Source: Bilabrum cf. latius (taxonomy: Eukaryota). Taken from it: a stretch of DNA of 64,000 nt. Both the position numbers and the translations under genes were made by a program. The stretch is from positions 124,001-188,000 of the forward strand of contig OZ237754.1 in assembly GCA_965178125.1 (NCBI GenBank), given 5' to 3'. The notes below the pieces were generated by a model. It did no database searches, was not told the DNA's origin, and worked only from the letters and a program-made list of their open reading frames with translations. Below are positions 1-64,000 of the stretch, piece by piece (position 1 is the first letter of the stretch; every line of letters begins with the position of its first letter).

Positions 1-1221
1 CTCTTCCTCCCTCTAGTTGGAGGGTAGCCCTGGGATGGCGGCAGGGGAAGGAGGCCAGGCGATCGGCGGGCTGCCCTGCCCGGACTGGACGAGGGGAGGC
101 GTGGCATCTGCCTGCACGAGCGGCACCTGGCTGGGGGTGCGGCTGGGTCCTGAGGCTGCGGTGTAGGGTGAGGATCCTTGTCCCACGGGCTCCGCACCGG
201 CCTCTGACTTGTTCTTCAAGTTCGCGTGCCCCGGGGTGCCGCCACCCACTGCCTGGTTCCCTGGACCGCTGGCATGCTCCACTGCCTGGTTCCCTGGACC
301 GCTGGCATGCTCCACTGCCTGGTTCCCTGGACCGCTGGCATGCTCCACTGCCTGGTTCCCTGGACCGCTGGCATGCTCCACTGCCTGGTTCCCTGGACCG
401 CTGGCATGCTCCGCTGCCTGGTTCCCTGGACCGCTGGCATGCTCCGCTGCCTGGTTCCCTGGACCGCTGGCATGCTCCGCTGCCTGGTTCCCTGGACCGC
501 TGGCATGCTCCGCTGCCTGGTTCCCTGGACCGCTGGCATGCTCCGCTGCCTGGTTCCCTGGACCGCTGGCATGCTCCGTTATGTCACTGCCCTCGGCAGA
601 GGCTGTGCGGCACACTGGCAGGCAGCCAGCGTGGATCGACCACAGCACTAAGAATGTAGCACCAATGCCGACAGGAAATACAGAGCTCCACCCAAGCACC
701 GGTCTCCAGCCCAAGTTTTCCACAAGGACCGCAAGCGGTGCCTGGGCGAGGAGGCTGCCAGCGAGCCCGAACATTATGCCCGCACCGGTCATTGTGCTAG
801 CAAGGCCGCTTGCTTTGAAATGCGTCTCGCTGAGCGTCACAACTCCAATCCAAGCTCCACCGACACCGGCGCCGACTAGTCCTCGAGCAGCTGCCGCCAG
901 TGCAAAGGAGCTCGTGGAGGCAAACCCCAAAGAACCAAGCGCTGCAGCGAACGCACAGCCTGCAAGTACGGGCAGGTGTCCGAAGCGCTGAAAGGCCCAC
1001 CCACATGGCAGCTAGACTGCAATATACGCATAGAAATACGTGGAGGAAAGAACGCCAACGGCGGAGCTATCAATTTTGTAGGCGAGCTGCAGGTCGTCCG
1101 ACACGACCGAGGGCGCCACTCGCTGGAAGAAACTATACGTAAAGAAAAGGGATGCAACCAGCCATGCTACCCAAATATCAAGGGGTGGGAGGTTCGATGT
1201 CGAGCTGCTCGTGGCTGCCAT
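1..1221 (-). CDS. MFS transporter, 3'-partial (runs off the left edge); in-frame TAG at 1012 and 13
   Basis: ORFs 1012..1221 and 13..930 are in one frame, joined via TAG: ...FFQRVAPSVV...STYFYAYIAV*LPCGWAFQRFG..., matching the MFS TM2 motif Y-x3-Q-x-P-x-G-x4-RFG; hydrophobic TM segments follow. Confidence 0.85.
246..575. repeat. Coding minisatellite, 10 x 33 bp (EHASGPGNQA[A/V]) in the MFS central loop
   Basis: Unit cc(a/g)ctgcctggttccctggaccgctggcatgct; 5 copies of each variant, in two blocks. Confidence 0.97.
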
Positions 1222-1540
1222 TATGTGGCTAGATTCGATTGCACAACTGTGTCCGTCATCGCTTCGTCACACACCGTGTGACGGCTCGGGGACACACTGT
1301 GGCCAAGGCCGCCAGCGGGCGTGATTGGCGACTTGTCCACCCCTGTGCAGAATAACCATTGCGGCCTAGAATATATCTGCATCGCAGGAGCCATTGACAA
1401 GGTAGCCTCGTTGCAACCATGATCACAGCATGATGGCAATTACTCTGACCACCCCCGGCCAATCCTCGCGCACCTTTGGGGTGCTGTCACTGCTGCACAC
1501 CCGAGCGCAGTATCGCAAGGCCGCACACCCTTAGTGCGGC

Positions 1541-4500
1541 TTATGACCCGCCCCTCCTGCGCCTCACCTCATCCGCGGGGTCCACCTCGGCCCCCGGCTG
1601 CAGCTGCTGCAGCACGCCCACCTCGATTGGAAGGTCGCCGGGCCCCTGCGGCTCCACGCTCCTCCCGTCCGTGAAACCGACCAGCTTCCAATCAAGCTCC
1701 GCCTTGTCACCCTGGAACACCGGCACGCGCAGCCGCCTCAAGTACGTTCCGCTGCGGGGGCACAGCATGCGCAGCGCCCGCGTCCTCCAGCCCATCTCGG
1801 ACTGGTGGTAGGCCATGCCAGGGATGCCCTCCACCTCCTCGTGGCGAGAGGCGTGCTTGGGCTGCTGGATCGCAGTCATCAGGTCCGCCTTGGTGGAGGC
1901 AAAGCTCAGCGCCGGATACGAGAACAGGCTCTGCACCCACACGTGCCTTCCCCTCCACCGCAGGCCCCTCCACGTGCTGTGGAAGGGGTGGATCTCACGG
2001 ACCCGCTGGTGCTCGAGCAGGGCCCGCCCAGCCGACTCGCCCTCACCAATCGTCACACCCGCCTCTTCCTGCAGCCACGACCGGATCCCCTCGACATCGG
2101 GAAGGTCTGGCTGCACCGCATACGGGGTCAGGCCAACGTGCGGCCGCAGTGAAAGCAGCAGGGCAGCCGCCGGCCCTCCCCATCGCAGCACCGCGGTATC
2201 GCGCAGCGACGTGCGGCCCAGCAGCTGCTCCCTGCCCCCGGCCGCGGCCTCGAAGGCCTTGCGCCCGCCCGCGATCAGCAGCCACTGGGCATACCCTCCC
2301 GCCTTCTGCGCGTCCCGCAGCGGCCCCGGGCTCTCGAAGTCGTCGCCAGGCTTGGCGAACCTGCACCAGGCAGAGCGGTAGAGCGCGTATGCCTCTGCGA
2401 AGGACCGCGGGACGGCCCTGGGATTGCCTGCACCGTCTGTGTCCCACTCAGTGGCCGCCTGCAGCCGGCTATCGACTGCCTGCTGCTCTTTCTTGGCTGC
2501 ATCCGAGGCCCCGCTGGCCGGCTCGGTCCTGCCGTCCGGGCTGCAGCCAGAATCGGTCAGCATGCGGTCCCGCAGGGTCGCAGCGGCCTCACCTGCAGAT
2601 TCCTCCTCCTCCTCCTTTTCCTCCCCGTCATCCTTCGAATCCTCGTCCTCACCATCGGCCATGCGCCACCAGCGCAGCGCCTCCTCTGCCCTCTGCCTCA
2701 TCTCTCCCCCATCGGTCTTGCCTCCCTGCAGGGCATGCTCCAGCTGCTCCAGGTCGCGACGGACGCACGCCGCATCTGGGGCGGGGCGGGACACGAGAGC
2801 GCGCATCCCTGCTGCTACGGGCCCCACCACCGCCCCCACGACGGTCTGCAGCCTCCTGAGCTGCCCGGCCGTGTACCGCACCAGCATGCGCCGGTACAGG
2901 AACGGCAGCGTCCTCCACTGAAGCACCCTCCTGGCCTCTTCCTAGTCCATGGGAAGGTCCGCAGCTGTCTGCGGGCCGTCCTCGCCGCCCTTGCCATTGT
3001 TCCCTGCTCGCCGCGCCTCCACCCTCCTGTCCACTTCCCGCGCCATCTCCTTGCTCTCGAAGGCGTGCACGTCCTCCACCGCCAGCTCCTCGCTGTCGGC
3101 GTCCAGCCAGTCGCCGTCGTCCATGGGCTCGTCGAACTGGTCCGAGGGGAAGCAGTCGCCCGCGTCGTCCTGTTCCCTGCCTCCATCCGCACCGGAGCCA
3201 GCGGCCCGCCCGGCAGCCGCCGCCCCATCCACGGCAGCGTAGAACGCGCCCGCCCTGCGAGCGGCCAGCCGTGCCATGTCGCGCGCGAATGCCACGAAGC
3301 TCCACAGCGCCTCCAGGTCTTCCTCCGTGATGGAGTGTGACGAGTGCGTCACCGTTCCCTCGAAGATCCAGGTGAGGTTCTCGGGCCCCCAGACCTCGGG
3401 CCCGCCCAGCCGGTGGGAGGGCAGCAGGTGCCTGGCGGTGCTCTCGTGCAGGTCGGGGTCCTGGCTGCGCCTCACCGCGGGCATGTGCGTGCCCATCCTC
3501 TCCTTGTGCCAGTAGTGGCCCGTGCGCGACCACTCCACGAAGGTGGTGGGGCGCAGGTAGTACAGCGAGGCGCGGACCCAGTCGGGCGGCGTGCTGGGGT
3601 CCGGGAAGGGCACGCTGTAGAAGAGCCGGTTGACGGGCTCGGCCGCGCCAAGGCACAGCCTAGCCTGCAGCCTCGCCCACACGCTCGAGTTGCTGGGCCC
3701 GTAGGTCCCCAGGTTGCCTCCCACGGAGAATACGTCGGAACCGTTGTTCCCCAGCGGGTCGTAGAAGATGGCCTGGTCCAGCCGCGGGTGCACGGGTGCC
3801 ACGAAGGGCGGCGTGCTCTTCTCATCCGTGGCCATGAAGCGGTACCTGAAGGGCCTCCACTTGAGCCCGCAATCCTCCTCCTCTGGATCCAGGTGCCTGG
3901 GGGCGGCCCCCAGCCTCTGCTCCTCATCATCATCGTCGTCGCCATTGTCGAGGGCGCTGTCTGCTTCCGTGCTCCGGCTCGAGTCGTCATCGTCACCTTC
4001 TTCCTCTTCGGCACCGCCTGCAGCCGCACCCCGGCGGCTGTCTCCGGCCGGCAGACCCGGCGCCTCGTCCTCCCTCGCTCCCTCGAAGACAACCACGTAC
4101 CTGGACGCTGGGTTTGCGTGCGGAGGGAACACACCGTACGCGTGGACGATGCGAAAGGGCTGCCAGAACCGGATCCAGTTCCTGAGGCCGCGCATGAAGG
4201 TGGGCCACTGCTCCAGCGAGGGCCAGTGCATCGCGGATAGTGTCACCCACGAGTTCAGGATGAAGAGGACCAGGAACGCAGGCAGGATCACGCCCAGTGC
4301 CACTGCGAGGAGCAGGGGCACCGACAGGGCCCGCGCGTGCACGACCACGGACCACAGGGCAGAGAAGAGCCCCCCCTCCGAGCCGGCTGCGGCGATGCTG
4401 GACCACGCCTGCGAAGGCAGTACGAGGCCGGTGGCGGCGGGGGTGGCGCCCAGCACGCAGTGGCTCCAGCGGGCAGTGAGGCTGTCCCGCCAGTCGAACA

Positions 4501-5476
4501 GCGGGATGCTTAGCACCGCGGTCAGCAGGTTAAAGTACCCGAAATTTCCCGTGAAGTGGATCCCGAACTGCAGTGCAATGAGCCCCAGCCCCGCGAGAAC
4601 CCTGGGCCAGCCCTGGAAGAAGGCCAGAAAGGGCACGGGAATCTCGATGATGAACATTACGAGCAGATTCACAATGTGCGCGGGGGCGGGGAGCGCGTTG
4701 TAGGCGGCCCAGCCCAGCAGGTTGGTCATGGGCATCCCTATGAAGAAGTTTTTGATGTACAGCTTGTCCCTCGGAGTGGTCCCTATGAACTTGAGCTTCC
4801 CAAACCCGACCATGAGCCTCCACAGCAGCATCCGCATGAGGAAGCTCACCAGCGGGTGCGGCAGGCTGGCAGCCGCGAGCGAGTCGGAGCGCAGCGGCGG
4901 CAGCCACATGGCAAGGAATGAAAGCTCCAGCGCGAGGGTGTCCCAGGGGAATGTTAGGCCCATCGGGACGTCCATCGAGAGCAGGCACACCCACGACACG
5001 ACGAGCAGGGCAGGGCTGCTGGCACCCCCGAATACCGCGACGTGCAGACCAGACAGCGCCCCCACAGCGGCCACCAAGTGGAGCATAAGGTCGGAACTGT
5101 TGATCCAAAACACCGACGGTGCGTTCAAGAACGCGTGCCACTGTGAGGGCAGGTCCTTCAGGGCACGCTTGAGGATGTCCCGCAGCGGACTCGCACCCCG
5201 CGCTCCCGCCCAGGGACCCACTTGAGGCAAAAATGTACCAAAGATCACAAACAAGACTGCACCAAAGCACCGAATAAATACCCCCCACACGAGCTCCGGT
5301 GGGATGCTCGTGAAGCTCTGCATCCCGATCCATGCGGGGTTCAGCCAAAGAGCAGTCCCATTCAGGGCATCTGGCCCGTTCTGGTCGATCAAATACGCAT
5401 TTTCATGCGTAGCGCATGTTGACACGTCGAGTGCGGGTCCTCCTATGGCGGCAACAAGGGCATCAATATACTCCAT
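1541..5476 (-). CDS. Lipase maturation factor (LMF) family membrane protein with a long C-terminal extension; in-frame TAG at 2942, stop TAA
   Basis: Motifs FPWDTLALE, RLMVGFGKLKF, TGNFGYFNLLT, AYGVF, APVHPRLD; ORFs 2942..5476 and 1541..2926 are in one frame. Confidence 0.88.
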
Positions 5477-5740
5477 TTCAATCCCTTAACTGGGAGCTGG
5501 CGCAGTAGGAAGAGGAGTTAACTCTGAGCTTCCAAAATCCGGGAAAAGCTCTGCGTAGCGCTAATAAACAGCTCCACACTGCGTATTGGGCGGCAAGCGT
5601 GGCAGCTAGTGGACAGCGAGGGACCCAGTCAGCGGAGGATCAACTTTACCAGAGCCAGGGTGACGTCAGCAGCACGCTACTTCTCGCTGCACTGTTCGTA
5701 ACTAGCAGTCACATGCAAATACAGATGTATTATGCGCCAA

Positions 5741-8700
5741 TCACGATAGATCCGACTCGAAGCCGTCATCTCGCTCGCTTTCGTTCGATCCGAGCGAGTG
5801 GAAGTCCAAGTCGACGTCCCCGAGCCCCCCACCAGCGGGTGAGCGTCCGAAGGCGGCACCGCGAGGCGCGTCCAACCGACCCCGGGCATCACCAGTTGTA
5901 TCATCAGAACTCGCTGACTGCATTCGCTGCCGTCCCACCAATGGAATTCCACTCCTGCCGAACGAAGACGCACCCTCCGCGGGACCCCCAGCCCCGGCAC
6001 CATAATCGTGCACTGCACCCTGCAGAACCACCTCATCGCCCAGCTCCCCTGAGGCGTCCAAATCTCCCGACCTGTCCAGCCCGCTGCTGTTCCCTGGATC
6101 CCTCCCACTCCTCACGGGCGACTCCGCCGCCGCCTCGCCCTCGGGGATCGCTTGCGGGTATGCCACCGGCTGCCGACTGGCCTGCTAGATGAGGGTCCCG
6201 TGGTGCCGCGCTGCGTGGACGGCGTGCAGCTGCGCCCGGGCGCTGGGAGCCCCACCTCCTCCAGTGCCTGGGACCGCCCCCGCGGCAGAAGCAGGAGAGC
6301 GCCAGCCCATGCCCGGTCCCGGTCCCGGGCCGGCCTCGCCCCACCGTCCACTCGAGATCTCAACGCTTCCGAAGGAGGAGCGGGGCAGGCGTGCGTCTCC
6401 CCCCTCACTCGTCAGGCGGTTATACGCCCGCGAGTCCCCCCCAGGTGTGCCCCTCCCAGGGGTGCCTCCCCCGACCCCGTGCCCATTCCCATTCCCATCT
6501 CTATCCCCATGCCCGACCACTGGGCTCCTCCGGGCAACAGGGGATGCGGGCGAGGAGCCTGTACCCATGGTGCCCATGGTGCCCATGGTTGGGGCTGGCC
6601 CTGAGTCGCCCTTGGAGGAGAGGGCGCTGGCTGGCCGGGGCCGTGCCTGTGCCTGTGCCTATGCCTGTGCCTATGCCTGTGCCTATGCCTGTGAGGGGGA
6701 CACCTCCTCACGTTGGGCCCTGCTATAATCATCGAGCTGGATATCCTCACACTACCCGCTCTCCTCTCCTTCAGGAGGGCTCCCAGGGACACCGCCGCTG
6801 CCGCTGCTCTCCACCCCCGGAGGCGGGAGTAGCATAGAGCGCCCCCCCACCCCCGGAGGCGGGAGTAGCATAGAGCGCCCGCCCAGCGACTGCATCGAGG
6901 TCTCGCGGCCTGCTGCGGCGACCCCTGCCCCACCTGCCGCTGGGCGGACAACACCACCTCCACCACCACCGTGTGGATGTCCCCAGACCGACCCGGAATG
7001 ACTCGTTTCGGCCCTGTCACGGGCGGTGCTGTGCCCTGGAGCACCCCCTGCCTGCAACCCCCTGCCACCGTCCATCTCTGCCTCCCCTGACCCGTGGGTC
7101 GCAGGCCGGCTCACCACGCTCTCACCCGGGATTGACCACGCGCTCGAAGCGGCGCCCCCCACAGGGGTGTGGCGCCCTCGGGCACGACTGCCGAACAGAG
7201 GCATCCCCACCGGCCCCTGGCCCTGCCCCTGGCTGTCCGCAGAGGTGCCCGCACCGCCCGCCCATGCGACCTGTCCAGCCGCCGCTACCTCGCTCACGAA
7301 AGTCTGCCCGCGGATGCTCTTCCGAGCCTGCCTGCTGCGGCGGCGGCCTAGCCGCTCTCTCGGCTGCGAGTAGGAGAATCCACCAATGGATGGAGCCACC
7401 GAGGAGCCCCGACGACCGAGCCCTCCGGGCGCGTCGCTCACGAATGACTCCACGGGCACGGCACCCGCTGGCTGCGTGCCGCCAGGGGCGTTCTGCTGCT
7501 GGCTGTGCTGACCCGCACGAGCACCAGCGCCCATCGGGGACTGCAAGGCAGAGAACCTCGCAGTTCCTGCGGCAGGGACAGAGGACACCAACGCGGGAGA
7601 TCCCATAGGCACGGCATTGCGGTGCTGCCAACCCGTGGTCTAACCCGCGAATCGCCGCTTGCTTATCCCCGCAGACACGGGCATGCTTCCCACACGCATG
7701 TCGAACGGCTCCCCCGGGGCACCCATGTTCCCATCGCGCATCCCGCCAGGAGCTGGCATGCTGCCCACCGCGGGCTGCATCAGATCATCCACCCTCCCGC
7801 TCGCCGCGTGCTTTTGCATGTCTGCCACACGCGCAGCCCCGGGGCCCCCGTCCAGCGGGACCGAATCCATCCTGGCCACCAGGCTAGGGTCATGGCGCAG
7901 CGAGCCGGGCCAGAAGGAGGAGCCCGCGGGAACCGACTCGCTTGCCGCCCAGTCGCGGTGAGACACAGCCACGTCGGCATCGGAGCCACGGCCCGGGGCG
8001 GGGATCCCTCCGATGGGAGTAGCCGCAGTACCCTGCCACCCCGAGGCTCCCGAGGCACCCTGCGCCTGCTGCTGATCGGCTGGGCTCGCGGGCAGGGCCG
8101 TGCGCCGGGCCCCTGATTGCGGGATCATCACGGCGCTGGCACCCGAATGTACGGGCGGGCGGGCCAAGCCATACCCCTGCACGGCAGCGGCCGATGCAGC
8201 AGCCGCAGAGGCGCCTGCGTAGCTCTCCGCAGATCCAACCAAAGGGTCATACCGGCCTTCCGCAACATCCCCCTATGCATAGTCGACATGATGTGACGTC
8301 AGTTCCGCAGCCGCCGCCTCCGCTGCTTTCCGCGCTTTGCGGGCCGCATCATCCGCAAGCTCCGAGACCACCAGCTCGGCCACCTGAAGGCGGAGCTGGA
8401 GCTGGCCCACCTCCACGATCCGGGGCGCCAGCGCCAGCGAGGCAGTGTTGCAGCTCCACTTGGTGCGAAGCATGAGCTGGCCGTGGTGCACGTACCTGCG
8501 AAGATCCGCGAACCGCCGGGTCAGGCGCAGCACGGCGGGCGGCAGCCTCAGCTTCTCCCCCTGCAGGCGGTCTTGCAGCTCCTGCTGCTCGGGGCCCGCT
8601 GCAACCGACCGTGAGGTGCTGTAGCTGCCGACCGAGTCCGCATCGGGGTGCCAGGGTCGGTGCAGCCCCCCTACGGCTGATTGCGCGCTGCCTGGTTCCT

Positions 8701-10023
8701 CTCGCTGGTACTAACGAGCGGGGGTGCGGAACAGCATCGAACTGCCGCCCGTCGAGGAGGAGGAGGGGGGGGCGTTCACCGTCGGCGTGCGGGGCGAGGA
8801 CAGGTCTGCAGCGCCGGATTGCTGCCGCAGCGACCCCGATCCTGCAGCCCGAGCCGCATGGCCCGAGCCCCGCGCGCCAGCTTCAGCCTCCCTACCACCG
8901 CCCGCCCCGTCCTGCGAGCTGTGGTAGTGGGCCGACCCACCCGGCCCCTCTGAAGCACCTCCCTGGTCCTAGTCCTCTTCGTCCGCAGTGCCACCAGTGC
9001 CCGCCGAAGCAAGGCTGGTGTTCCGCAGGTGTCCGCTTCCGCGGGTCCTGCCTGCCCGGCTGCCTGCGCCTCTCGTCCCAGTAGACCCGGAGTCTGCCAC
9101 CGAGCCAGAGGCGGCCCGTTGGTGCCTACTTCCAGGGCTGATGCCGCGCGCGTACCGCACCCCGCCGCTGGCTCCCGCCCCGCTGTCCCTGTCCCTGTCG
9201 TCCTCCAGGGTCACTGGTCTAGAAGTAGCGGTGGCGCGGGAGACCACCCTGGATCGCTAAAAGGCGGAGGCCTTGGGGGAGGCCCCGGAAGCAGGGCCGG
9301 CCCCGCTCCCGCTGCCCTGGCGAGGACTCTGTATGCGCTGTCCCCTAGGAGACCCCTTCACGGCGACTGCAGGGCTAGCTGGCGGAGGGTTAGCATGCTT
9401 GCCAGCCTGATCACGACCCGGCCGCAGCAGCAGTCGAGGCACCGTGGGCTTGTCGCGGTCTCGTTCCCCCTTGATCGAGATGCTTAGCTTTGTAACAGCG
9501 GGGGCGGCTCCACCGGACTCGTGTGCGGCATGCGTGCTAGAGCCGCCCTGGCTGCCCAGCTCCGCATGCTCTGCCGCACCTGCGCTTGAGCCTGTCCGCT
9601 CGTGCCTGTGCGTGCTGGCCGTCATGGCGTCCCCTGTGCGGGCCAGGGTCTTCACCAGCGCAGGGGTCGGCAGCTTGGCAAGTCTCTTGAGGCTGTCCAC
9701 CCGCCTCATCGCGGAATTCCCCTGCCCTTGCTTCCTGGCGCGCAGGTCCAGTCCAGTGGCGGGAATGGCCTGGGCGCCCTCCATGGCCCGCATGAGGTAC
9801 TCGGGCGCGGGGAAGAGAAACCCCATCACGGCCGCGACGCGGTTGGAGCTGTGGGGGTCCAGCGGCATCACGCGCAGGTCCAGGGTGTGCCTCAGTTCCT
9901 GCAGTGCACGGACCTTGACGGCCCACTTGCGGTCGGCTTCCTCCCCCCTGCTGCTGGGGCCACTGCCCTAAGTCGAGCCGCCCCCTTGGCTGCCCGAGCC
10001 ACCGTGCCTGGCGCCGCTGATGA

Positions 10024-10054
<31 letters not shown>

Positions 10055-13000: not shown

Positions 13001-13276
13001 GTCTGTCGAGAGCTTCGCTCGGCGAGGCGAGACCGGCTTGCTGAACGGAGCTTGGGCACCCATCGACCTTGCCTCGGCCCTACTAATTCTGTTGCAGTAC
13101 CCTCCAGCTGTGGCTAGAACTACAGATGGTGCGGCCCCGCTGAGAGATCGTCGCCGTGGGTGCCCACGGGCCTTCGGCGAAACATTGGCTGCCTTCGGTG
13201 AGGCCCCACCAAAGTCGAGAGCGCGCGGCAGCACGTCGGCGTGTGAAGCAGCCCTCGCCCTGTTCACTGTTGACAT
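5741..13276 (-). CDS. Large (~2500 aa) low-complexity protein with short coiled coils, function unknown
   Basis: Eleven track ORFs (12959, 12476, 12143, 9968, 9257, 8969, 8273, 7640, 6752, 6185, 5741) share one frame; every internal stop is TAG and the terminal stop is TGA. Confidence 0.8.
11063..11146. repeat. (GTGCTG)14 microsatellite encoding a (QH)n tract on the minus strand
   Basis: Perfect hexamer run seen directly. Confidence 0.95.
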
Positions 13277-13459
13277 GATATCAGCAAGCAGAAAGGTTTG
13301 ATTCCATCGCTATTCAGCTGGAGTGTGTCCCACGCCACACCTGCCCACGCCCTTGAGATGATGACGATCCTGCCTGCCAAATTGGCACTGAAAGGACCAC
13401 ACCCATAGCTGCGTGCCAGCTTGGCGTCGTCAAAATAAGTGCATAAATCGTTTTCAAAG

Positions 13460-18200: not shown

Positions 18201-18875
18201 GACGGCCTCTTCGTCCCACAGACCCCCCTTGCCCGCCGATCCGTTTGCTACCGATTGCAAAGAGACGCGGGCGTCTGCATCCGCTGCCACACGGACGTCT
18301 CCGCCTGATGGGAACGATGAAAAGGCGGAGGAGGAGTCGCTCAGAGCCTGGCGGGCAGATTCCGTGGCTCTTCGCCTCTCCATCAAGCGCCTCCTTCTTT
18401 CTTCCGACTTCTGCTCTCTGGCCCTTGGGGCGCTCGCCTCATCGCCATCGGCAACAAGGGCTCCTGCGCCATAGGCTGCCTCGTCGTCTGGCATACCTGC
18501 GCGAAATAGGCTTCGTTGAAGCGTACCCTCGTCGTCTGCAGTGTCTACCTCGTCCTCGTCTTCCATTGGCCTCCACTTTGGTCGTGGCTGCGGGCGCAAG
18601 TTAACGCTCCCGTCCCTGACATCGATCGCGGCAATCGGGTGATTCCCGTGGCTATCTTCGTACTCCTCTAGGACATCAACGATTTCGTCCATGCTGGCCC
18701 GAATACGATCCTCTAGCGGTGCCTGTGGACGTTCCACCGCGGTTGGTTTTGTCCGAATCAGGCTTCCTCCTCTACCGGCACGATGTGGCGAGAGAATACG
18801 CTTTCCGGTTGCTGCCAACGGTATACAGGCGAGTACTGCGCATGCAATCAAATGTAATGTTGCGTGTCTGGGCAT
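15261..18875 (-). CDS. Probable ER-lumenal protein (~1200 aa): N-terminal signal peptide, C-terminal ADEL; in-frame TAG at 16620, 16491, 15933, 15927, 15663, 15486
   Basis: Starts MPRHATLHLIACAVLACIPLAATG; read-through frame ends ...YYDRSGADEL-TGA. Confidence 0.8.
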
Positions 18876-29960: not shown

Positions 29961-30031
29961 GCGATTTTGGCAACTTTTTATTATCGCTTAGGACGAGGCT
30001 CCGGTCTTCCAAGGAGAAGCTGAACCAGTAG

Positions 30032-52422: not shown

Positions 52423-52683
52423 AATCTACCCTCTGTCCTTGAAGCGCCCATCCCTAGTTTCCGTTAGAGTCGACTGAGCCAAACGCGAGGATTTTCTTGC
52501 AATTGCAAGGTCTTGACGCGCAGCTAACCGAGTCTATTTTGGTCCATTTCGATTAGAGATTGATTTCATTCAGTTTGCGCAGTACTGTGCCTGAACGCTC
52601 ACTTCGGGCAGGTCTAATGTCATATTTGCTCGCAACAAAGTGCGAGCATGCATGCTGCTCGCCTCACTTTTCTGCAATCAGAC

Positions 52684-53195: not shown

Positions 53196-55700
53196 TTATT
53201 GACCATCCTTACTTGACTCTGTCACTGATTTTGCTGCACCTGTAGGATCTGCGCCCGGGCTGATGACGGTGGACGCGCCCTGGGCCACTCCGACCACGGG
53301 CGCGAATACCGTGCTAGTTGACACTGGCGCGCCCGCGCCGCTGCTCTGGATACCACCAACCGGCGCAAAGGACTGATAGGGGGCTGTGCCCCACTGCAAG
53401 GGCATAGTCGCGCTGCCTGCGCCGGGAGAGTAGACAGGCGGCAGATAACCGTCAGCGCTCCCCATGCTCCCCATGCTTCCTCCTGCAAGTGCTGGCCCGA
53501 TGCCAGCAGAGGTTGCCGCGCCGCCAGCGCTTCCCATCGTTGTCCCAACTGGCGGCATCACTGGCATGCCCATAGCCATCGGCATTCCCATGCCTAAGCC
53601 GCCCATGCCCCCCATCCCCATGCCACCCAAGCCCATGGGCATGCCCATGCTCATGGGCATTCCTCCCATTCCCAACGGCATGCCGTACAAAGTGGCCATC
53701 TGATGCGCCTGGTTCATTGCTCTCCGCTCGCCTCCTTTGCCCCAGTCCAGCCGCAGGGTCTGTCCATGCAGCTCAGTGCCGTGCAGGCTGTGGATGGCGG
53801 TGGCCGCGTTTTGCTTGAACTGAAACTCCACAAACCCGCAGTGCTTTCCATCCAGAACGTTTGCGTGCGACACGGGCCCGCACTGAGTGAACAGCAGATG
53901 AAGGTCCTCTGCAGTCGTGCGGTCCGACAAGCCTCCCACGAATACGGTGGTGTTACCCTGCGATGGGTCGGGGGGAGGAGAGGCCTGGTTTGCCCCGGGC
54001 ACCTCTCTCAGCGCCTCAATCACGCTCTCAGCTGGGGAGGCCACGGCGGTCTGCGGTGTACCCTGGTAGCCCATATGAGCCCCCCCCATTCCCCCGGCGC
54101 CAGTCCCCGCATGCCCGCCCTGCAAGGTGGCCGCCTGCACGCCAGGTTGCGGCGCCAGGCCCGGATCCTCCGCCGACGAGCCCAGTCGACGGGTGGATGA
54201 CTTTGGCGTGGCGTACCTAACTCGAATGGACGGAGGGTCCCCCTCAGCTTCCCCCTCGTCCTTTGTGCCCACCGCGCGTCCGTCCATGGCAAGGCGGGCA
54301 GCGGTCGCTTGCTCCACGGTGTCGAACCGCACGAACCCGTAGCCCCTGCTTCGACCTGTGTTTCTGTCCACCTGCACCACGGCCTCGGTCGCACCGAGCG
54401 GCCCGAACCACTCCATGAGCAGCTCCGAGGTCACGTCTCGCGGGAAGTCACCCACGAACAGGCTGCTTGAAGGGGCGGGCGGCGCGTTGTGCTGCTGCTG
54501 CTTTCTCCCCTTCGGAGAGGTGTTCCCCCGCCGCGGACTGCCCCCCTTAGACCTGCCTGCACTCTCCCCCCCTCTCGGGGACCAGCCAGAGCCAGAGCCA
54601 GAGATCGGATTGGCCTGCTGCTGCTGCTGCTGGTAGTAGGGCTGGGACTCCATCGAGCCGCCTTCCACCGCTGGCACAGGAGCTGCCACGAATGCGGGGC
54701 CTTGCCCTGGGGCCGCCATCGCCATGCCGTGGACGGGAGGGGCACCTGCCGGCATCGCCACGGGCGCATAGCCCAGTCCGTGCGGGGGATGGGGATGCGA
54801 CGGAGCAGCATACATGGCAGGCGCAGCACCTCCCATGGCTCCCATGCCCCCGCTGACACCTACAGATGCCGGGTACACCGGCATGTACGGCTGGCTCGAG
54901 TAGGCTGCAGTCGACTGATCCACCGGTCCCGCCGCGACGTACTGTGGCGGGAAGGCAGTTGGCACCTGCGCTGGGGAGTACCCTGCGCCTGCTGCTATCC
55001 CACCCTGCTGCGCTGAGCCCGCCCCTCCTGCCATGGGAATACCCTGCATGGCATAGGGATCGTGAATCCCGGCCGGGATGCCCTGAAGGGGCGGCACCGC
55101 TGCGACACTGTGCCGCGCACCGACCACAGGCGAGTGCACGCTGCTGGCCCCAGCTGTGCCCCCCCCCTCCTCGCCGACGTCCTGCGGGGGGAAATCGCCG
55201 GCGCTGTCCGCCTCATGATCCCCAAGCGAGGCCTGTCCCACGGAGTTTCCCCTTGAGATAACCCCTTCAGGCTCGCCGGCCCCGCTCTGCATCGAGGCGG
55301 TCAACCCCGATGCCTCCGGGGAGGCCGCGCCCGGGTCGGCGTACGCAGACGCCATCTCTGACAGTCTCCGGCGACCTTGGGACGCTTGCACTGGGGCGGT
55401 GCGTGCTTTTGATCGGGCACCAGGCGGCACATACTTCGAAGTGGTGACGCCGGCAGCCCGAGGTTGCCTCCGGCCGGAAGCAACCGCGACGCTGCCAGCG
55501 ACCGCTCCCTTGCCAGCGCGGTGTTTGCTGGTCCCACCGTCGACATCATCTGGGCTTTCGCCACCTCTTGGATATGCCGAGTCACTTAGGGGGCTACTCG
55601 TCCTCGCGGCATCTCTGAGTCCCGCCGAAATGGCATCGGGTTGACCCCTCGGGCTCTCGAGTGGGGCTGAAGCAGGCCTTTTCTCCTCAGCAACGTCCAT
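53196..55700 (-). CDS. RNA-binding protein with two RRM domains and low-complexity regions; stop TAA
   Basis: RNP2/RNP1 motifs LFVGDF...RGYGFVRF and NTTVFVGGL...KHCGFVEF...LRLDWG (NAM8/RBP47-like last RRM). Confidence 0.92.
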   Translation of the reverse strand: MDVAEEKRPASAPLESPRGQPDAISAGLRDAARTSSPLSDSAYPRGGESPDDVDGGTSKHRAGKGAVAGSVAVASGRRQPRAAGVTTSKYVPPGARSKARTAPVQASQGRRRLSEMASAYADPGAASPEASGLTASMQSGAGEPEGVISRGNSVGQASLGDHEADSAGDFPPQDVGEEGGGTAGASSVHSPVVGARHSVAAVPPLQGIPAGIHDPYAMQGIPMAGGAGSAQQGGIAAGAGYSPAQVPTAFPPQYVAAGPVDQSTAAYSSQPYMPVYPASVGVSGGMGAMGGAAPAMYAAPSHPHPPHGLGYAPVAMPAGAPPVHGMAMAAPGQGPAFVAAPVPAVEGGSMESQPYYQQQQQQANPISGSGSGWSPRGGESAGRSKGGSPRRGNTSPKGRKQQQHNAPPAPSSSLFVGDFPRDVTSELLMEWFGPLGATEAVVQVDRNTGRSRGYGFVRFDTVEQATAARLAMDGRAVGTKDEGEAEGDPPSIRVRYATPKSSTRRLGSSAEDPGLAPQPGVQAATLQGGHAGTGAGGMGGAHMGYQGTPQTAVASPAESVIEALREVPGANQASPPPDPSQGNTTVFVGGLSDRTTAEDLHLLFTQCGPVSHANVLDGKHCGFVEFQFKQNAATAIHSLHGTELHGQTLRLDWGKGGERRAMNQAHQMATLYGMPLGMGGMPMSMGMPMGLGGMGMGGMGGLGMGMPMAMGMPVMPPVGTTMGSAGGAATSAGIGPALAGGSMGSMGSADGYLPPVYSPGAGSATMPLQWGTAPYQSFAPVGGIQSSGAGAPVSTSTVFAPVVGVAQGASTVISPGADPTGAAKSVTESSKDGQ

Positions 55701-55753
55701 GACCCTTCAACAACTACGCAAGGCCAAAATAATATTGGTATTCTCACAACAAG

Positions 55754-56540: not shown

Positions 56541-57851
56541 TCAGAACAGCTCCCGCCCACCCCCGAGCATGTTTCCAGGCGTTCTCACGAGCACAATGTC
56601 CGCCCCGTACTGGATCCAGGCGGGGAGAACCGCAGGGACAGGCTCGTGATCGCCAGGGCCTGGCTTGCTGGCCGCATGTGACTCGCTGCTGCTCTTCCCC
56701 TCAATGCCCCCGCTCGTGCCACCAGAGGCTGGTTCCGAGGAAACCCGGCCGCTAACCACATCCTTACATATTTCTTGTTCCAGTGCGGCCTCCGTGTGAG
56801 CTGGAGCCCCCGACGTGCCCGGGACGGAGCCTTCACCCAACCCCGCTTGTGCTGGACTCGCCGCCTTCGCACCTGCTTCCCCGTGCCCGGGCCCATGCCC
56901 CGCCCCGCCGCTTCCGACCCCAGCTGTAAATTCCATCGTCCAAGGGATGGAGAGTCCGCCGCTGGAACCACCGCCCGGTGCTCCGCGCTCCTCCCCACCG
57001 TGGCCCCGAGCAGATGCTCCAGCAGTGCCGCCACGGTGCTCGCCTCCTCTCGTGGGGCTGCCCGGGGCTGCCAGCGCAAGCCGTGGCAGTGGTGCCACCG
57101 TCGGGATTACGAAAGGGGATATAGTCGTCACTGTAGCATCCACCAGCCCGGCCCCAGGTGCCGACCCACCCGGCTTCATGCCGCCACTGGAGCTGGCAGT
57201 GGCAACCGCGGCGTGTTGGTGCTCGCTGAGCAGTCCCGCGATGACGCGAGCCCCGCCTTCCACCATGAGCCGCTTCACTCCGATGGACGAAACGGCTGAT
57301 AGAATTGACTACCATGACAACGTGTGACGCTAGGGAACGCCGGTGCTGGATTCCTTCGGCGGGCTTGAACCTTTGATGCCGATGACAGCCACGCCACGTT
57401 CGCTGATCGCCTTGGCGCGAGCAGACCCGAGCTCCGAGGCTAGTACTGCCGCAGAGCATAGTAAAACAGGTTTTCGTGCAGGATCAGATAGTGATTTGAT
57501 CGATAAGGGGATCCTTAGGTGGGGATCTAGTATAATTGGCCTTGGACTAGGGCCGCGGACTAGCCTCGTGGTCAGCGATGGATTGTCGTTGACAGCCGTC
57601 CCTACTCCTACCAGAATACCATCATGCCAAGCACGGAGACTATGCGTCATTTTCCAAGACTCTCTCCCCGAAATAGGCACTGCTTTGCCGGACTTCATTG
57701 CAATCGATCCGTCCAGCGACTGCGCCCAAGTCAGAGTGACAAAGGGCCTCTCGTTGGTCCTTGATCTGGAGACGCCATCCCCATGCAAGCTGGTAAGTAG
57801 TTCAATGACGCTGTCTCGGGTTCCCATTAGCCAGTGCAATGAATGTTTCAT
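56541..57851 (-). CDS. RibD C-terminal / Rib7-like pyrimidine reductase (riboflavin biosynthesis); TAG at 57330 and 57309
   Basis: RPFVTLTWAQSLDGSIA, THSLRAWHDGILVGVGT..DNPSL, then through two TAGs to GVKRLMVEGGARVI; stop TGA. Confidence 0.9.
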
Positions 57852-57947
57852 GGAACGATCACGATTAGTTGCCAGCTCCGGATCGATCCAAACCAAGCCA
57901 CGTACGTTGCTGAAAGATCTGCAGTTACACGCTTCAGTAACCTCATT

Positions 57948-59889
57948 ATGGTATATGTGGATGCGCGTATTGCGGTGCAGGGAGGTTGGATCAATCCGAC
58001 CGTCAGGGCATGGGTAAGAAGACAATCACTGTGCCAAGTTTTGGTTGTTGTATCGAACTATTGTATCGTCCTCCCCATTGCAACGATTAAACGCGCCGCA
58101 GATGCTAGCAACACGTCCCTGGAGTTTTCCGGCGTCCTTTATTGCGGTCCTGCTTGCTGTTGGTGTCGCTAGTCGCTGCGGGGAGGAATGGGATTTCGTC
58201 GGCGTGGCTGCTGCGGCTACTGGCGGCACCCTGGTGCACGCAGCAGCGAACCTCATCAACACATACTATGATTATACTAGCGGTGTGGATCAAAAGGACG
58301 ATGCGGACGACAGAACGCTAGTGGACGGCGTCCTCAAGCCCGAGGACGTGATGCGGATGGCGCAGGCATTCCTGGCCGGAGCCCTCGCTTGCATCGCGTA
58401 CGTGGTGCAGCAGCACGCGGAAGTTCTCCCTCTCGCTGCCGTTGGGATCATCCTTGCCGTGGGATACACGGCGGCTCCCATCCAGCTGAAGCACCTGGGG
58501 CTCGGTGAGGCCACGATTTTCGCGTGCTTTGGTCCCCTGCTCTTCGCGGGAGCCTCGATTGCAGCCACGGGTACCGTCACGGCAGAGGTGCTGCTGGCGT
58601 CAGCGGCCTCCGGCATAGCCACTGTGGCCATTCTGCACGCCAACAACGCCCGGGATGTGGACGCGGACCGCCGCGCGGGTGCCTTCACCCTGGCCCAGAC
58701 GTGCGGGTTCGGAGGGAACCTGTTCGCGTACATCGTGATGATCGTGGGGGCGTTCGGGCTCGGTGCACTGACCATCGGAGCCGCTGTATCGGCTGGTGAG
58801 ACCAGGCAGACCATGGCTGAGACGGCCCAGGAGGTGGTAGAGAACATTGTGGGCGACGGTTCTAGGGGCGGCGGCCTGCTCTCCGTTCTCATGCTTCAGA
58901 GCCACCCCATGGTCGAGGCAGCCATGGGCGTGCCTCATGCCGCCATGCAGGGCGCCGCACGGCTGTCGCAGTTCCTCGCGGTGATCCTGTCGGACAGCAA
59001 CGTCAGCGTGGAGGGCATCGCATCCAGGCGGCTCAACGACGGAGACGTCTCCATCCTGTTCGGGCTCGGTGGGCTTGCTGTGTGCTCTCACTGGGGGGTC
59101 CGTCTACTGCTGCGGTTCTCTAGCAAGAAGCTCTTCTTCCTGCCCTAGCAGACTGCCCAGTTTGGGCTTCTGTTCGGGGCCGGCCTCGGGCTCGGGGTGC
59201 TGCCTCCTCGCGCGGCCATCCGCGGGCTGCTCGCCATCCTCTTCCTGCTGGGAGGCATCAACAACCTCGTCATGTGGCTGCACTCCCGCGAGCTCGTCCA
59301 CTCCAAGCTCGCCCTCGTCGTGCAGGGCATCCCGGCCCCGGCCTCCCACGCCGCCGCGCTGCTCACCAGCCTCGCCCAGATCGCAGCTTCCTCTTGCTTC
59401 CTCCTCGGTTTCTATGAGAAGCCAGCCGCGGTGGCTCTGGCGCTCTTCCTCGTGGCAGTGACACCCACCGTGCACAATTTCTGGGACGCAAACGTGCCCG
59501 GTGACCCGGAGTGGGGATCGCAGGCGAGCAGTGACAAGGTCGAAGCGACGCCTGCTGAGGCTGCATCCAACGGCACCAAGGGCAAGTCCAAGGGTAAGAG
59601 CAAGGGCAGGGGTAGGGCCGGGTCTCGTGCCCGCACTCGTAGGCAGTCGTCGGGCGACGACGAGAGTGAAAGCAAAAGCGAGAGCGAGGGGGGCAACAGC
59701 GACGATGAGGCAGAAGCGGCCCCGGGCGCGCAGTCGCACAGCGGCGGCGAGGGCAGCAGCACCGTCCGAGGCCTGGATGGCGCGGGTCCCGTGCCCACGT
59801 TCTTGCAGGCCTTCGACAACGAGTTCGTGCATTTCTGGAAGAACCTCGGCATGCTGGGTGGGCTGCTGGCATTCGTTGCCTTCGCATGA
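57948..59889 (+). CDS. UbiA prenyltransferase (UBIAD1/MenA-like) fused to a DoxX-family domain; intron 58014-58101; TAG at 59146
   Basis: RPWSF, NLINTYYDY..GVD..DDRTLVD, LHANNARD..D; LP*QTAQ; then FLVAVTPTVHNFW...FWKNLGMLGGLL; stop TGA. Confidence 0.85.
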
Positions 59890-60083: not shown

Positions 60084-62020
60084 TCAAGTGGCCTCGCGAG
60101 CAAAGTTCTGCATGCCGGATCCCACGCAGGATACCAACACGGTATCCGTCGGGGCCACCTCCCACATGTCCTCCTTGCCGCTACCTGCAGCACTCTTGGA
60201 TTTCCCGGCTTCCCCATCGCCCTCGTCCTCGTCCTCGTCGCTGCTGCCCGAACCCGACTCACCGTCCTCATCGTCCTCGCCCTCTCCCTTGCTTCCAGTC
60301 ATAGTTCCGTCCTCACCCTCGTAGATGCCCCTCCGGCGCTTCTTGCGGGCGGCGCGTGCCTCTGCCTCCTTCTTGGCGGCGGCTGCCGCGGCACGTTTCG
60401 CCACCAGTGCGGCCGGCGTGGCGCCTGCCCTCTTCCGCAGGGTGCCCTTGGGCTCCGCCCTGAGCCTGAAGGACACACCCAGAAACAACTTGATCAGCCG
60501 CATCACGGTGACATCTCGCGCGGACAGCGGCCCCAGCCTGAGCCTGGACACGTCCTCGGGAGTTGCTGCCATGAGCACCAGCGCAAGAGGGCTCCAACAC
60601 GGATCCGCGCACCCGCCCCTGCGGATCACGTCACAGAGGAGAGAGGCAGCCTCCTTGCCCGCGTCTTCAGGAGCCACTGACTTGCCCCCGGCGGCGGGAC
60701 ATGCCTGTGCCCCATACACCACACCGCTCGTCGTCTCTGCTCTGATCGCGACGGTGTACCCGGGCGACTTGGGGCACTCTTTGGACGTGTGCTTGTGGTG
60801 GTCCGTGGCAAGGTAGACGTCTGGCAGCATGCGATTGAGCACGCCCCTGCGATAAGTGGGAATAGATAAATGGAGCAAGGCTTGGTACAGGTTGAGACAA
60901 CAAGCGATGCATGCTGTCGCGCTAGTGCAACAGGTTCGATGAACGCCAATATGATGTACCTTGCTGTGCTCTGCTGTGCGCCCTACTCCTCTCCCAGTCA
61001 GAAATCTCATGTGGAACCGGCATGTCGTCCCGGCGATAATGCGCCGGAGCTCTCTACAGGTGCGGCAATGAGGCGTGGCCCGCGCGCCTATCGTCATCCC
61101 GGGGTGGAGCGTGGCAGCAGCAGCAGCAGCCAGCAATCAATCAATCAATCAATCAATCAAGCGGGCGGGCAGGCAGGCGGGCAGGCAGTGCACAGCAGGA
61201 AAACACGGCACTATAGAACAGGCGGGCAAGCACTCGTTCGTTGAATCTCGTCGATCGCATGCGAACCCTCTCACCTGACTCCGTGCACAGCACGATTCGC
61301 CACCTGGGCAGAGATGCGGGAGGCCACCACGGTGCCCCGCACGCGCTTCACGAATCCCTCTGCCATGATGTGCACGGGCCGCAGCCGACGCACCACCGGG
61401 ATGATGGCCCTAACGACACCCCCGCCGGCTGGCAGCAGGCCTTTCCGGGCGTACTGCACGGCGGGCGCGTTCTCGCCGTCCATGCCGAACGAGGCGAGGA
61501 GGGGCAGCAGCACGTGCTGGACCGACTCGATGCTAGGATCCGTGGGTGTCTCTGTGGGGCCCACCAGCGTGATGCTCAGCGGCTTCTTGCCGAAGGGTGC
61601 CAGCATCAGGAGCGCCTCGAGGTAGTACGACAGGCCCCTCGAATTGCCGCACTTGAAGCGGTCCCGGATGGAGCCTCCGAGCACCACGCCGGGGCGGAAG
61701 CTCACCGCCGTGCCTGTTTCGTTAATATCCACCTTGGTTCCATTCGTGATGAGGTCAAGCAGCCGGAGCAGCGTCACCTCGTGGTCTCGCAAACCAATCG
61801 CAGAGACACTCCGATCTCGAATCGACTCGATGCGTACGGAGCGACCGGTCAGCACCGACAAGCAGAGGCGATACCTAAATTCATCACTGCCCTTAAACCT
61901 CAAAACCGAGCCGGGAGCGATATCTGATGCAGGCCTTACCTGCGCTGCTGCCGCACCGCTGGGGCCTCGTTTGGCGGCTCGGCTAGAAGCTGCGAAGCCA
62001 CGAGGCTTTGATGCAGCCAT
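60084..62020 (-). CDS. RCL1: RNA 3'-terminal phosphate cyclase-like protein; intron 60847-61274; alternative start at 62242
   Basis: FRYRLCLSVLTG, LRLLDLITNGT..INETGT, APFGKKPL, P.GGG.V, LPDVY, SPGY, PEDAG, CVGSG; GTGAG...AG splice restores VRGVLN. Confidence 0.92.
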
Positions 62021-62363
62021 ATCCGCAATAGAAGATGATCCATATGTAGCTTCTATGCTAGAACTCGAATCATATACCCCGCTCCCTCCTTCAGCGCCAC
62101 CTGGAGCCCAAGTTGCAGCAGCAGTCGAGCCATACGTCGCACCAGACACTTTCGAGCCTTTGCTACGCTTCTTTTGCCACATTGCTTCCCGTGCAGATGC
62201 AAGTGTGCCTTTGGGTAGGCTTGGAGGTATAACTTGTTCCATCACAATGCAATGGATTCCGCTTGTGCCATGGAAGCGACCTGTTGTTTGGTCTCCGCAA
62301 TTGAGGCATTTTCAGTTTGATCGGAGCATGCCGATTGGCAAGTCTGTGCTTGTCGCCACAAAA

Positions 62364-64000
62364 ATGCGGATACGGCGGAAAAATATCGCGAAGGATGGGA
62401 GCGGGAGCGTCGATATTCTTGCCGAGACTGCTGATGACATGTGGCACGTCCTAAACTTGGTCCAGGTTGGTGATGAGGTGCGCGCACCGACCTACAGGAA
62501 GGTGAGGAGGGGTGTTTAGCTTGCTTGCCATGATTTGAGTGTCAAAGGCACTTGTCTCCTCGTATTGAGCACGGCACAAATCCGGTGCAGGTTGCAAAGG
62601 AAGGTCTTTCGGGGTCCACCACAACAGAGAAGGTCGGTGTTACCCTCTCCGTGAAGGTAAGAACGCAGCGTCATTACACCAAAGCCGGTGCTGCACATGC
62701 ACTAGGACCAATACAAGCAGTGCAGCTAATTCTTTCGCAGGTTGAGGCAGTCGAATACGACCAAACCAGTACCACGCTCCGTCTGAAGGGCAAGGTGTGC
62801 AAGGCAAATAAATGGGTCCGGATGGGAGCATACCACACCCTGGAACTGTCGTCCAGTGCTCTCACGACAGGGGCACACAAATTTTCGCTGATCAAGCAGT
62901 TTTGGGACTCGATGCACCTCAGCCGCCTGCACTCGGCCACGTCCATCAAGCACAAGGCAGAGGTGGCGGCTGTGGCGGTGAGCGGCTCCGAGTCCAGTGT
63001 GTGCCTCATCACGGACGCCATGACCATCCAGCTGGCCTCGATCGAGGCCAAGGCCCCCTCCAAGCGGGCCAGCTCGGCAGACCGCCGCGACAAGGCCATG
63101 AAGGCGTACTACCAGCGGATCACGGACGCCATCGCGCACCACCTGCCCCTGGATCGGATCAAGGCGCTCCTCATCGCCGGCCCGGGGCACTTCAAGGAAC
63201 AGCTCAGGATGCACCTGCTGGAAGCAAGGGCAGCCTCCAAGGGCACCGACTCCCTGCAGGCGCTCGAGCCCTCGAAGATAGTCATGGTGCAGGCCATGGG
63301 CGGGACCAAGGCCACCGTGCAAGCGGCCCTGGCCGACCCGGGCGTGGCCCGGAATCTGTCCGATACCCGCGCGGCGGGGGACGTGGCGGCGGTCGAGGAC
63401 TTCTTCAAGGCCATGCGCGAAGACGAGGACCGCACGGCCTACTCGTTCAAGCACGTCCGCACGGCTCTTGACTCGGCCGCGGTTGACACTCTGCTGCTTG
63501 CCGACGATCTCTTCCGGTCCCCCGATGTAAAGACCAGGGCGGCGTACGTGGCGCTGGCCGATGAGGCGAAAGGGCAAGGGGTGTCGGTGAGGGTGGTCTC
63601 CGGGATGCACCCCGCGGGGCAGCAGCTCGCCATGATGAGCGGGGTGGCGGCGCTGCTGAGGTATCCTATGCCGCACCTGCAGGAGATGGTGGAAGAAGCG
63701 GAGAAGGACAGGAGGGAGGGGAGGAGCGGTGGTGCGGGGGCGTCTTCGGGCGCGGGGACAGGCGGTGCGTCAGCTTCCGGGGCCGGTGCAGACGCGCGAG
63801 ATGTGCTGGAGCTGGGGCGGGGACGGGAGGGCGCGTGGCGCGGGGGCATGGACGAGGACAGCTCGACAGAGGAGGAGAGAGAGTCGGTGCCTGACCACAG
63901 GGACCACAGCTGGCTCTTAGCGGCGCTCGAGACGAGAGCTGGGGCTGGGGCGGGCGTGGTAGCTGCGGGGGGCGACGCGGCTGCAAGCGCTGCGGCAGCG
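62364..64000 (+). CDS. PELO: Pelota/Dom34 ribosome-rescue factor, 3'-partial; introns 62502-62590 and 62657-62740
   Basis: DDMWHVLNLVQVGD.VRA.TYRKV, MGAYHTLEL, WDS, AGPGHFK, SGMHPAGQQL..SGVAALLRYP; phase-0 GT-AG introns. Confidence 0.93.

Follow-up and report, generated by a model that had tools for sequence, protein, structure and literature searches.

We analysed 64,000 nucleotides of DNA from Bilabrum cf. latius (contig OZ237754.1 of assembly GCA_965178125.1, positions 124,001 to 188,000 of the forward strand; this whole stretch is hereafter called the window, and positions are counted from its first letter), in which the triplet TAG recurs within protein-coding frames. The G+C content of the window is 60-70%, and its gene set is eukaryotic nuclear. 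With boundaries set by TAA and TGA, 17 frame pieces were delimited, corresponding to approximately 15 genes and 18,337 codons, and 101 in-frame TAGs were found in 13 of these pieces, on both strands. Nine of the 13 TAG-bearing frames were supported by Pfam families (E≤0.001), namely MFS_1, LMF1, PRP4 with WD40, Peptidase_S11, B_lectin, GH65, LRR/WW, RibD_C, and UbiA with DoxX; the B_lectin match scores under Pfam's own cut-off.

The window opens on the reverse strand with an MFS transporter gene (1..1266), which is truncated by the window edge and carries one TAG within the MFS_1 match (1012-1014) and another at 13-15. A 33-base tandem repeat of approximately 10 copies (180-641, reverse strand) lies within this frame and encodes EHASGPGNQAA/V units. 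The same strand holds a lipase-maturation-factor (LMF1) gene (1541..5485; 1314 codons, TAA end) with a single in-frame TAG (2942-2944) and a low-complexity frame (5741..13429; 2562 codons, TGA end) with 18, some of them within a polyglutamine run (12019-12024) and within a (CAG GCA TAG GCA)x3 repeat (6661-6687). The gene for the U4/U6 small nuclear ribonucleoprotein PRP4 (13460..15205, forward strand; TGA end) has TAGs at 13643, 13763, and 14033. Two reverse-strand frames follow, one without a family (15261..18995; 1244 codons, TGA end, seven TAGs) and the ‘RLE’ frame (19498-20229; 243 codons, five TAGs), for which a Pfam search matched no family.

On the forward strand, a Peptidase_S11 (D-Ala-D-Ala carboxypeptidase-like) frame (21731..25906; 1391 codons, TGA end) contains eight TAGs, three of which (21842, 21875, and 21893) fall within the domain. 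It is followed by a frame without a family (25982..29767; 1261 codons, TAA end, six TAGs), a bulb-lectin-like frame (30692..31840; TGA end, three TAGs), a GH65 glycoside hydrolase gene (33494..36247; TGA end) whose one TAG (33542) falls in what is presumed to be the signal peptide, and another frame without a family (37055..38767; 570 codons, TGA end, six TAGs). On either side of the lectin-like gene and of a tandem array (31733-32398), in which a 37-base unit occurs at least 13 times, stand direct repeats of 113 bases with 95.6% identity (30032-30144 and 32341-32453); together, the repeats and the array may mark a segment that was once mobile or was duplicated. A 27-base AT-rich motif, of which no copies are expected by chance, is present in two exact copies (20209-20235 and 30301-30327, forward strand), each within approximately 50 similar bases in gene-poor DNA, and an Rfam search at these sites returned no family.

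The largest gene, hereafter the giant gene (38920..52569, reverse strand; 4549 codons, TGA end), contains 43 TAGs and encodes LRR, WW, and a conserved C-terminal domain. Further TAGs were found in the gene for a riboflavin-pathway reductase (RibD_C, Rib7-like; 56541..58025, reverse strand; TGA end), at 57330-57332 and 57309-57311, and in a UBIAD1/MenA-like prenyltransferase and DoxX gene (58014..59889, forward strand; exon from 58102, TGA end). In the latter, the prenyltransferase and the DoxX domain form a single frame (58102-59889, forward strand) with a long insert between them. No in-frame TAG occurs in the genes for a two-RRM-domain protein (53196..55706, reverse strand; TAA end), RCL1, which acts in 18S ribosomal RNA biogenesis (60084..62311, reverse strand; TGA end), and Pelota (Dom34; 62361..64000, forward strand; start approximate, truncated by the window edge).

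Under the standard code, the longest stop-to-stop frames reached 900, 847, and 836 codons. Reading TAG as a sense codon yielded frames of 4549, 2562, 1391, 1314, 1261, 1244, 1159, and 917 codons, whereas the control readings of TGA or TAA as sense gave maxima of only 943 and 928 codons, respectively; the triplet counts over both strands were 1321 for TGA and 831 for TAG. Because the two controls stay short, it is TAG in particular that lengthens the frames, and not GC-richness as such. The giant gene makes the same point within a single frame: frame 0 holds 43 TAG, 0 TAA, and 0 TGA, while the corresponding counts are 39, 14, and 85 in frame 1 and 35, 14, and 99 in frame 2. In-frame TAG is thus undepleted relative to the off-frames, whereas at the off-frame rate approximately 106 TAA and TGA triplets would have been expected and there are none. 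Seven TAGs fall within the part of a frame that matches a Pfam domain. TAG is, however, approximately three times rarer in family-supported frames (21 in 8151 codons, 0.26%) than in the other frames (80 in 10,186 codons, 0.79%). The base at position +4 is C with nearly equal frequency after TAG and after CAG (0.40 and 0.36, respectively), and no inference on context was made from it. Overall, UAG is a sense codon in the nuclear protein-coding genes of the window.

UAA and UGA are stops, and probably the only two. Neither occurs in frame in the 18,337 codons, although approximately 26 in-frame TAAs, of which approximately 17 in the giant gene, would be expected if TAA were a sense codon used at the ratio of CAA to CAG (162:625). 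Among the 14 tallied frame ends, 11 were TGA and 3 were TAA; at the three TAA ends, more stops follow within 18-92 codons, and the sequence there is unlike the coding parts. The zero count of TAG ends is an outcome of bounding frames by TAA and TGA, and hence is no evidence on TAG termination. UAA was not found as a sense codon, as it would be in a code that reads both UAA and UAG (UAR) as glutamine (NCBI table 6 type), and UGA was not found as a sense codon, as it would be in a code without dedicated stops (Condylostoma/Blastocrithidia type).

Contigs from four public runs (X5-X8, from three studies) were aligned to the window from 44001 to 64000. The contigs of X5, X7, and X8 omit six segments: two upstream of the RRM gene (55788-55926 and 55972-56329), one at the start of the prenyltransferase gene (58014-58101), one in RCL1 (60847-61274), and two in the pelota gene (62502-62590 and 62657-62740). 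All six introns begin with GTGAG or GTAAG, end with GCAG, and are 84-428 nucleotides long, with a G+C content of 45-57%, which is below that of the exons. By contrast, a contig of X6 spans 58806-63496 continuously except for one skipped repeat (61106-61192), retaining both pelota introns whole and most of the RCL1 intron, while the other three introns are not crossed by X6 contigs. The depth of X5 is 105-160 across the RRM gene, which has the deepest contig coverage, versus 0.6 right beside it. Intron skipping versus retention, together with this uneven depth, is the pattern of complementary DNA (cDNA) versus genomic DNA; X5, X7, and X8 (two studies) were taken as cDNA from intron skipping alone, which intron-less DNA copies could also produce.

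X5 contigs on 44001-49600 and 49579-52559 showed no other letters and no gaps relative to the window and covered 21 in-frame TAGs of the giant gene, which from 44001 to 52559 is covered by contigs without any splice. Another X5 contig, over 58101-59845 and in spliced form, holds the UbiA TAG (59146-59148), and in total 22 TAGs were retained letter for letter in contigs of the spliced runs. Contig agreement describes the main form only, rare variants such as low-level editing being below contig resolution, and the RibD_C TAGs (57311 and 57332), which lie outside all listed contig pieces, are excluded from the claim. For the 22 contig-covered TAGs, the letter-for-letter match rules out splicing, editing, and assembly error as explanations. 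A first-pass annotation made from the letters of the window had read TAG as sense with TAA and TGA as stops, and this is borne out by the frame lengths, the giant-gene counts, the contigs, and the frame ends. The TAA ends that it placed at 1541, 29765, and 53196 are correct, the remaining 11 of the 14 tallied ends are indeed TGA, and its observation that TAA and TGA are absent in frame holds over all codons examined. For part of the window, we can add that TAG is retained in mature mRNA, as seen in the spliced contigs of three runs, and that base-calling error is countered by the lack of other letters in those contigs and by the agreement of the fourth run (X6, introns kept) with the window letters. 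Its count of at least 14 TAG-bearing genes has to be revised, since 13 frames were counted.

Close relatives were found only as proteins predicted in metagenomes and in assemblies of sequencing runs. Protein-cluster searches gave PRP4-like clusters of diatoms, green algae, and animals and LMF1 clusters of Chlamydiota and chordates, which point to no particular taxon. Identities were 73% for PRP4 (protein P0001) and 77% for pelota (P0002); for the giant gene, the relatives are fragments with 40-90% identity, and full-length homologues have 24-34%. The contig of P0001 (L001) carries, at 258-1994, a GH65-like gene in two frames with in-frame TAGs, one of which stands opposite a Q of the window GH65. 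This gene intervenes between homologues of PRP4 and of the 5741-13429 frame, whose N-terminus is 56% identical to the relative's frame in L001; because these two are adjacent in the window, the gene order differs between L001 and the window. Two predicted proteins of one giant-gene relative (P0008 and P0005, 81-90% identical) end and restart exactly at the codon of the window TAG at residue 3578 of the giant protein (giant-3578), and P0004 and P0006 are distinct gene calls on a single contig; standard-code gene callers evidently split the relatives' genes at TAG. Since the relatives also show in-frame TAGs, the sense reading of TAG belongs to a clade and is not a quirk of one assembly. Searches with residues 2690-3200 of the giant protein, and with shorter lengths, found no homologues, and no pelota relative was found among the genome contigs searched. 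A further candidate relative locus, L002, was rejected as an unrelated WD40 locus.

Two alternative explanations of the in-frame TAGs were weighed against a regular sense reading. In one, the code is standard and the TAGs are assembly or base-calling errors, are spliced or edited out, or belong to pseudogenes or chance frames. Long chance frames do occur in GC-rich DNA, and the window does contain antisense frames with 400-1100 codons; nevertheless, this explanation is scarcely credible, as over the listed pieces contigs of all four runs (three studies) match with no other letters and the spliced ones keep 22 TAGs, a C-to-T artefact would also have produced in-frame TAA and TGA, the TGA and TAA controls fail to lengthen frames while the expected TAA and TGA are missing from the giant gene, and relatives carry the same feature. 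In the other, UAG is decoded without a dedicated transfer RNA (tRNA), by near-cognate pairing that would insert a mixture of Gln, Tyr, and Lys, or serves as stop or sense according to where in the mRNA it stands, as is the case in Condylostoma and Blastocrithidia. The residues opposite TAG in homologues are strikingly varied (E, Q, V, A, T, F, and D), which such decoding would accommodate, as it would the scarcity of TAG in family-supported genes. A TAG also sits two codons ahead of the TGA in the frame 37055-38767, and frames bounded by TAA and TGA are blind to termination at TAG. Against this, 43 TAGs in a gene of 4549 codons would leave a negligible full-length yield unless decoding is efficient, in-frame TAG is not depleted relative to the off-frames, and all 14 tallied ends are TAA or TGA; we therefore regard mixed or dual decoding as improbable and continue with UAG as a regularly decoded sense codon.

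The amino acid specified by UAG is likely to be glutamine, as the first-pass annotation had proposed. TAG is embedded in CAG runs and repeats (e.g., CAG TAG TAG CAG CAG), and the share of Q among its neighbours (10.4%) resembles that of CAG (9.5%) and not that of GAG (5.0%). A classifier based on neighbour profiles placed Q at the top, followed at distances of 4.2, 6.6, 10.2, and 14.3 natural-log (ln) units by H, K, L, and E, respectively; in controls, true Q was called Q in 96 of 100 cases and true E was called Q in none of 100. When TAG was scored as a residue relative to X in Pfam profiles, MFS_1 gave +2.8 bits for Q, +0.6 for E, +1.2 for S, and −0.5 for L. RibD_C (+0.9 for both Q and E) and Peptidase_S11 (0.0 for Q, −0.4 for E, and +1.8 for S) left Q and E unseparated. 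The sum over three profiles of giant-gene homologues was +5.5 bits for Q, +3.7 for E, +1.1 for S, −2.1 for L, and −9.4 for W. The C-terminal profile of these gave 124.0 bits for Q, 122.1 for E, 118.3 for S, 115.6 for Y, and 113.3 for L, while the middle and N-terminal profiles spread over less than 3 bits in a residue order that is not sensible. Over all six profiles (Peptidase_S11, MFS_1, RibD_C, and the three giant-gene profiles), the summed scores were +9.2 bits for Q, +4.8 for E, +4.3 for S, and −3.3 for L, these four being the only residues scored across every profile. Only one column, giant-4501, is deeply conserved, and there five of six homologue lineages have Q; UbiA-377 corresponds to Q in human UBIAD1, in a weak second stretch of the alignment, and PRP4-69 is Q in the closest relative.

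Several observations weigh against glutamine. The neighbour signal is mainly self-clustering of Q: with Q neighbours omitted, Q falls to −4.5 ln units in the neighbour test, after I, K, and R. Such a signal might also be produced if TAG codons merely descend from CAG. The 33 homologue residues opposite TAG comprise seven E and seven Q, of which five Q come from one column, and substitution profiles derived from those alignments, whose pairs are non-independent, put E 7.6 ln units ahead of Q. The per-column BLOSUM62 sum over 26 columns is a tie (E 0, A −0.5, and Q −0.6). Individual columns also disagree: PRP4-69 is E in human, giant-3688 is E, giant-3444 is E in a relative that has conserved flanks and 64% identity, giant-4262 is D, D, D, and E, Dac-49 is V, V, I, and V in four of four solved homologues, and MFS-85 is L in FLVCR2, the nearest solved homologue, the MFS piece itself having no solved relative at E≤0.01. 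Finally, of the D(C/G)NLV repeats of the lectin-like gene, the first carries a TAG (31010-31012, forward strand) at the position held by F and Y in the other two; either this is a site-tolerant copy or the gene is decaying, and the Tyr codons TAC and TAT are one base from TAG. These findings qualify the annotation's proposal as follows. Glutamine ranks first in the neighbour test and in the summed profiles, whereas the homologue columns tie Q with E. Among the sites that it had singled out, PVFAA(TAG)YRLR is aligned with the column in which five of six lineages have Q, and LP(TAG)QTA aligns with LPQRTA of human UBIAD1 in the weak second stretch, while YIAV(TAG)LPCG favours Q in the MFS_1 profile and faces the L of FLVCR2; the fourth site lies in the ‘RLE’ frame, which has no Pfam match.

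Codes in which UAG alone or both UAR codons specify glutamate have been published for some ciliates and for Blastocrithidia, and UAG could likewise be decoded here as glutamate by a tRNA(CUA) derived from tRNA-Glu. Besides the equal counts of E and Q opposite TAG, E is present in 6 of 20 columns and Q in 3, the empirical profile and the BLOSUM sum (by 0.6) both favour E, the columns giant-3444, giant-3688, giant-4262, and giant-4516 carry E or D, and several TAGs have acidic surroundings (EED(TAG)DQ and DSE(TAG)D(TAG)T, for instance). We nonetheless consider glutamate unlikely: E trails Q by 14.3 ln units in the neighbour profile, and still by 3.3 with Q neighbours left out; the E share among neighbours of TAG (6.1%) resembles that of CAG (5.2%) and not that of GAG (8.7%) or GAA (11.0%); the summed profiles put E below Q; and both giant-4501 and UBIAD1 have Q. 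Decoding as another residue, such as Ser, Leu, Tyr, or Lys, is very doubtful. The Ser sum is near that of Glu, the Peptidase_S11 score is 49.5 with S versus 47.7 with Q, many TAGs stand within S/G-rich stretches, and hydrophobic residues are opposite TAG in 7 of 33 pairs, with F and Y opposite the lectin TAG. In the neighbour test, however, S is not among the first eight residues and trails Q by over 13 ln units, with L at −10.2; the C-terminal profile of the giant protein scores S, Y, and L well short of Q; and the giant-profile sums for L and W are negative, that for L remaining so with the Pfam scores added. Glutamine accordingly stays our preferred assignment.

A mechanism consistent with UAG as glutamine can be outlined. 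In a GC-rich nuclear genome with few introns, cytoplasmic translation would read UAG as an amino acid by means of a tRNA with the anticodon CUA, the one required for pairing with UAG and not with UAA, and which probably arose by a single base change in a copy of tRNA-Gln(CUG). Recognition of a third-position G by the release factor eRF1 would have been lost or weakened, with recognition of UAA and UGA retained. TAG codons may then have built up by mutation, chiefly from CAG, and most quickly in fast-evolving, low-complexity genes; the scarcity of TAG in family-supported genes fits codons that arose after the code change, at tolerant sites. Two negative results within the 64-kb window bear against this scheme, as neither a tRNA(CUA) nor an eRF1 gene was found there. 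The sole tRNA gene is tRNA-Arg(TCT) (29889..29962, forward strand), which is not the TAG decoder, and an RNA-family search of the window returned nothing beyond it. The eRF1-like gene at 62361-64000 was rejected as eRF1, being pelota instead (TIGR00111 151.7 bits versus aRF1_eRF1 51.8 bits); its presence is a possible source of confusion with the release factor in code studies.

According to two reports, nuclear codes that split UAG from UAA were unknown before 2017 and are still limited to few lineages, mostly AT-rich ciliates (PMC5304391; PMC11687900), and the two 2017 cases were described from transcriptomes only, with the decoding tRNAs merely predicted (PMC5304391). The code found here is probably a further case of the known UAG-only nuclear class (NCBI table 15 type). 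It is also conceivable, and we regard the matter as close to evenly balanced while leaning slightly against it, that an unsampled GC-rich non-ciliate clade, with relatives only in metagenomes, underwent a separate reassignment of only UAG to glutamine. The literature covered by our search, outside of which lay the papers on Scotinosphaera and Heterolobosea (Mol Phylogenet Evol 2025) and supplements, contained no account of a UAG-only code in a GC-rich non-ciliate. If such an independent origin is true, G-ending stops would not have been made rare by AT pressure, which is a poor fit to simple codon capture, and an extra case of UAG/UAA decoupling would be available with genomic DNA in hand. A case at 60-70% G+C whose main stop is TGA would put to the test the two origins proposed for such codes, codon capture under AT pressure and an ambiguous intermediate, and with genomic DNA the tRNA(CUA), the glutaminyl-tRNA synthetase, and eRF1 are directly readable. 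In practical terms, annotation under the standard code truncates genes at every TAG, and the assembly needs the correct code table.

Codes with partly similar properties differ from the one found here in several respects. In crAss-like and Lak phages, which are described as using code 15, TAG is read as Gln and TAA and TGA are stops, as in the window; however, those systems rely on phage suppressor tRNAs and bacterial ribosomes, whereas the present DNA is nuclear, with spliceosomal introns. The aphelid Amoeboaphelidium protococcarum reads both TAG and TAA as Gln (PMC6299283; PMC5304391) and has a genome of 40.5% G+C (PMC10608142). It and other codes reading UAR as Gln share with the window the conversion of a stop to glutamine in a non-ciliate; here, TAA stays out of frame and ends three genes, and the G+C content is 60-70%. 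An assignment of the window to an Amoeboaphelidium-type aphelid was rejected on the same two grounds, base composition and the reading of TAA. A nucleariid placement likewise gained no support: the literature passages found were silent on nucleariid codes, and Nuclearia thermophila has 44% G+C. UAG is read as Leu in the rhizarian exLh, where UAA is the dominant stop (PMC5304391), and also in some ciliates (PMC5304391; PMC11687900), and as Ser, according to a report on the green alga Scotinosphaera (PMC11687900). Both exLh and Scotinosphaera resemble the present case in decoupling UAG from UAA outside ciliates. Unlike in exLh, Leu was the worst of the residues scored on every profile here and TGA, not UAA, is the main stop, and the G+C content differs as well; for Scotinosphaera, where the comparison is with a one-sentence description of its code, the difference lies in the lower sum obtained here for Ser than for Gln.

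The closest parallels are the codes in which UAG alone specifies glutamine. Among ciliates, this has been described for Protocruzia tuzeti and two phyllopharyngean lineages, with genomes of 27-54% G+C in which UAA is the commonest stop and UGA the rarest (PMC11687900). The code type is the same (NCBI table 15), but the window has 60-70% G+C, TGA as the commonest stop, genes of up to 13.6 kb, and introns of 84-428 nucleotides with GTRAG..GCAG boundaries. In the fornicate Iotanema spirale, represented by a transcriptome only, UAG is read as Gln, UAA and UGA are stops with UAA as the primary one, and a T32G change in the GTS motif of eRF1 has been proposed to account for the loss of UAG recognition (PMC5304391). 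The present case is alike in that a non-ciliate has reassigned UAG only, probably to Gln, while keeping UAA, and in the same predicted need for a tRNA(CUA) and a weakened eRF1. It is set apart, by stop usage and base composition rather than by phylogeny, in that UAA is the main stop in Iotanema, whereas TGA closes 11 and TAA 3 of 14 frames in this GC-rich window.

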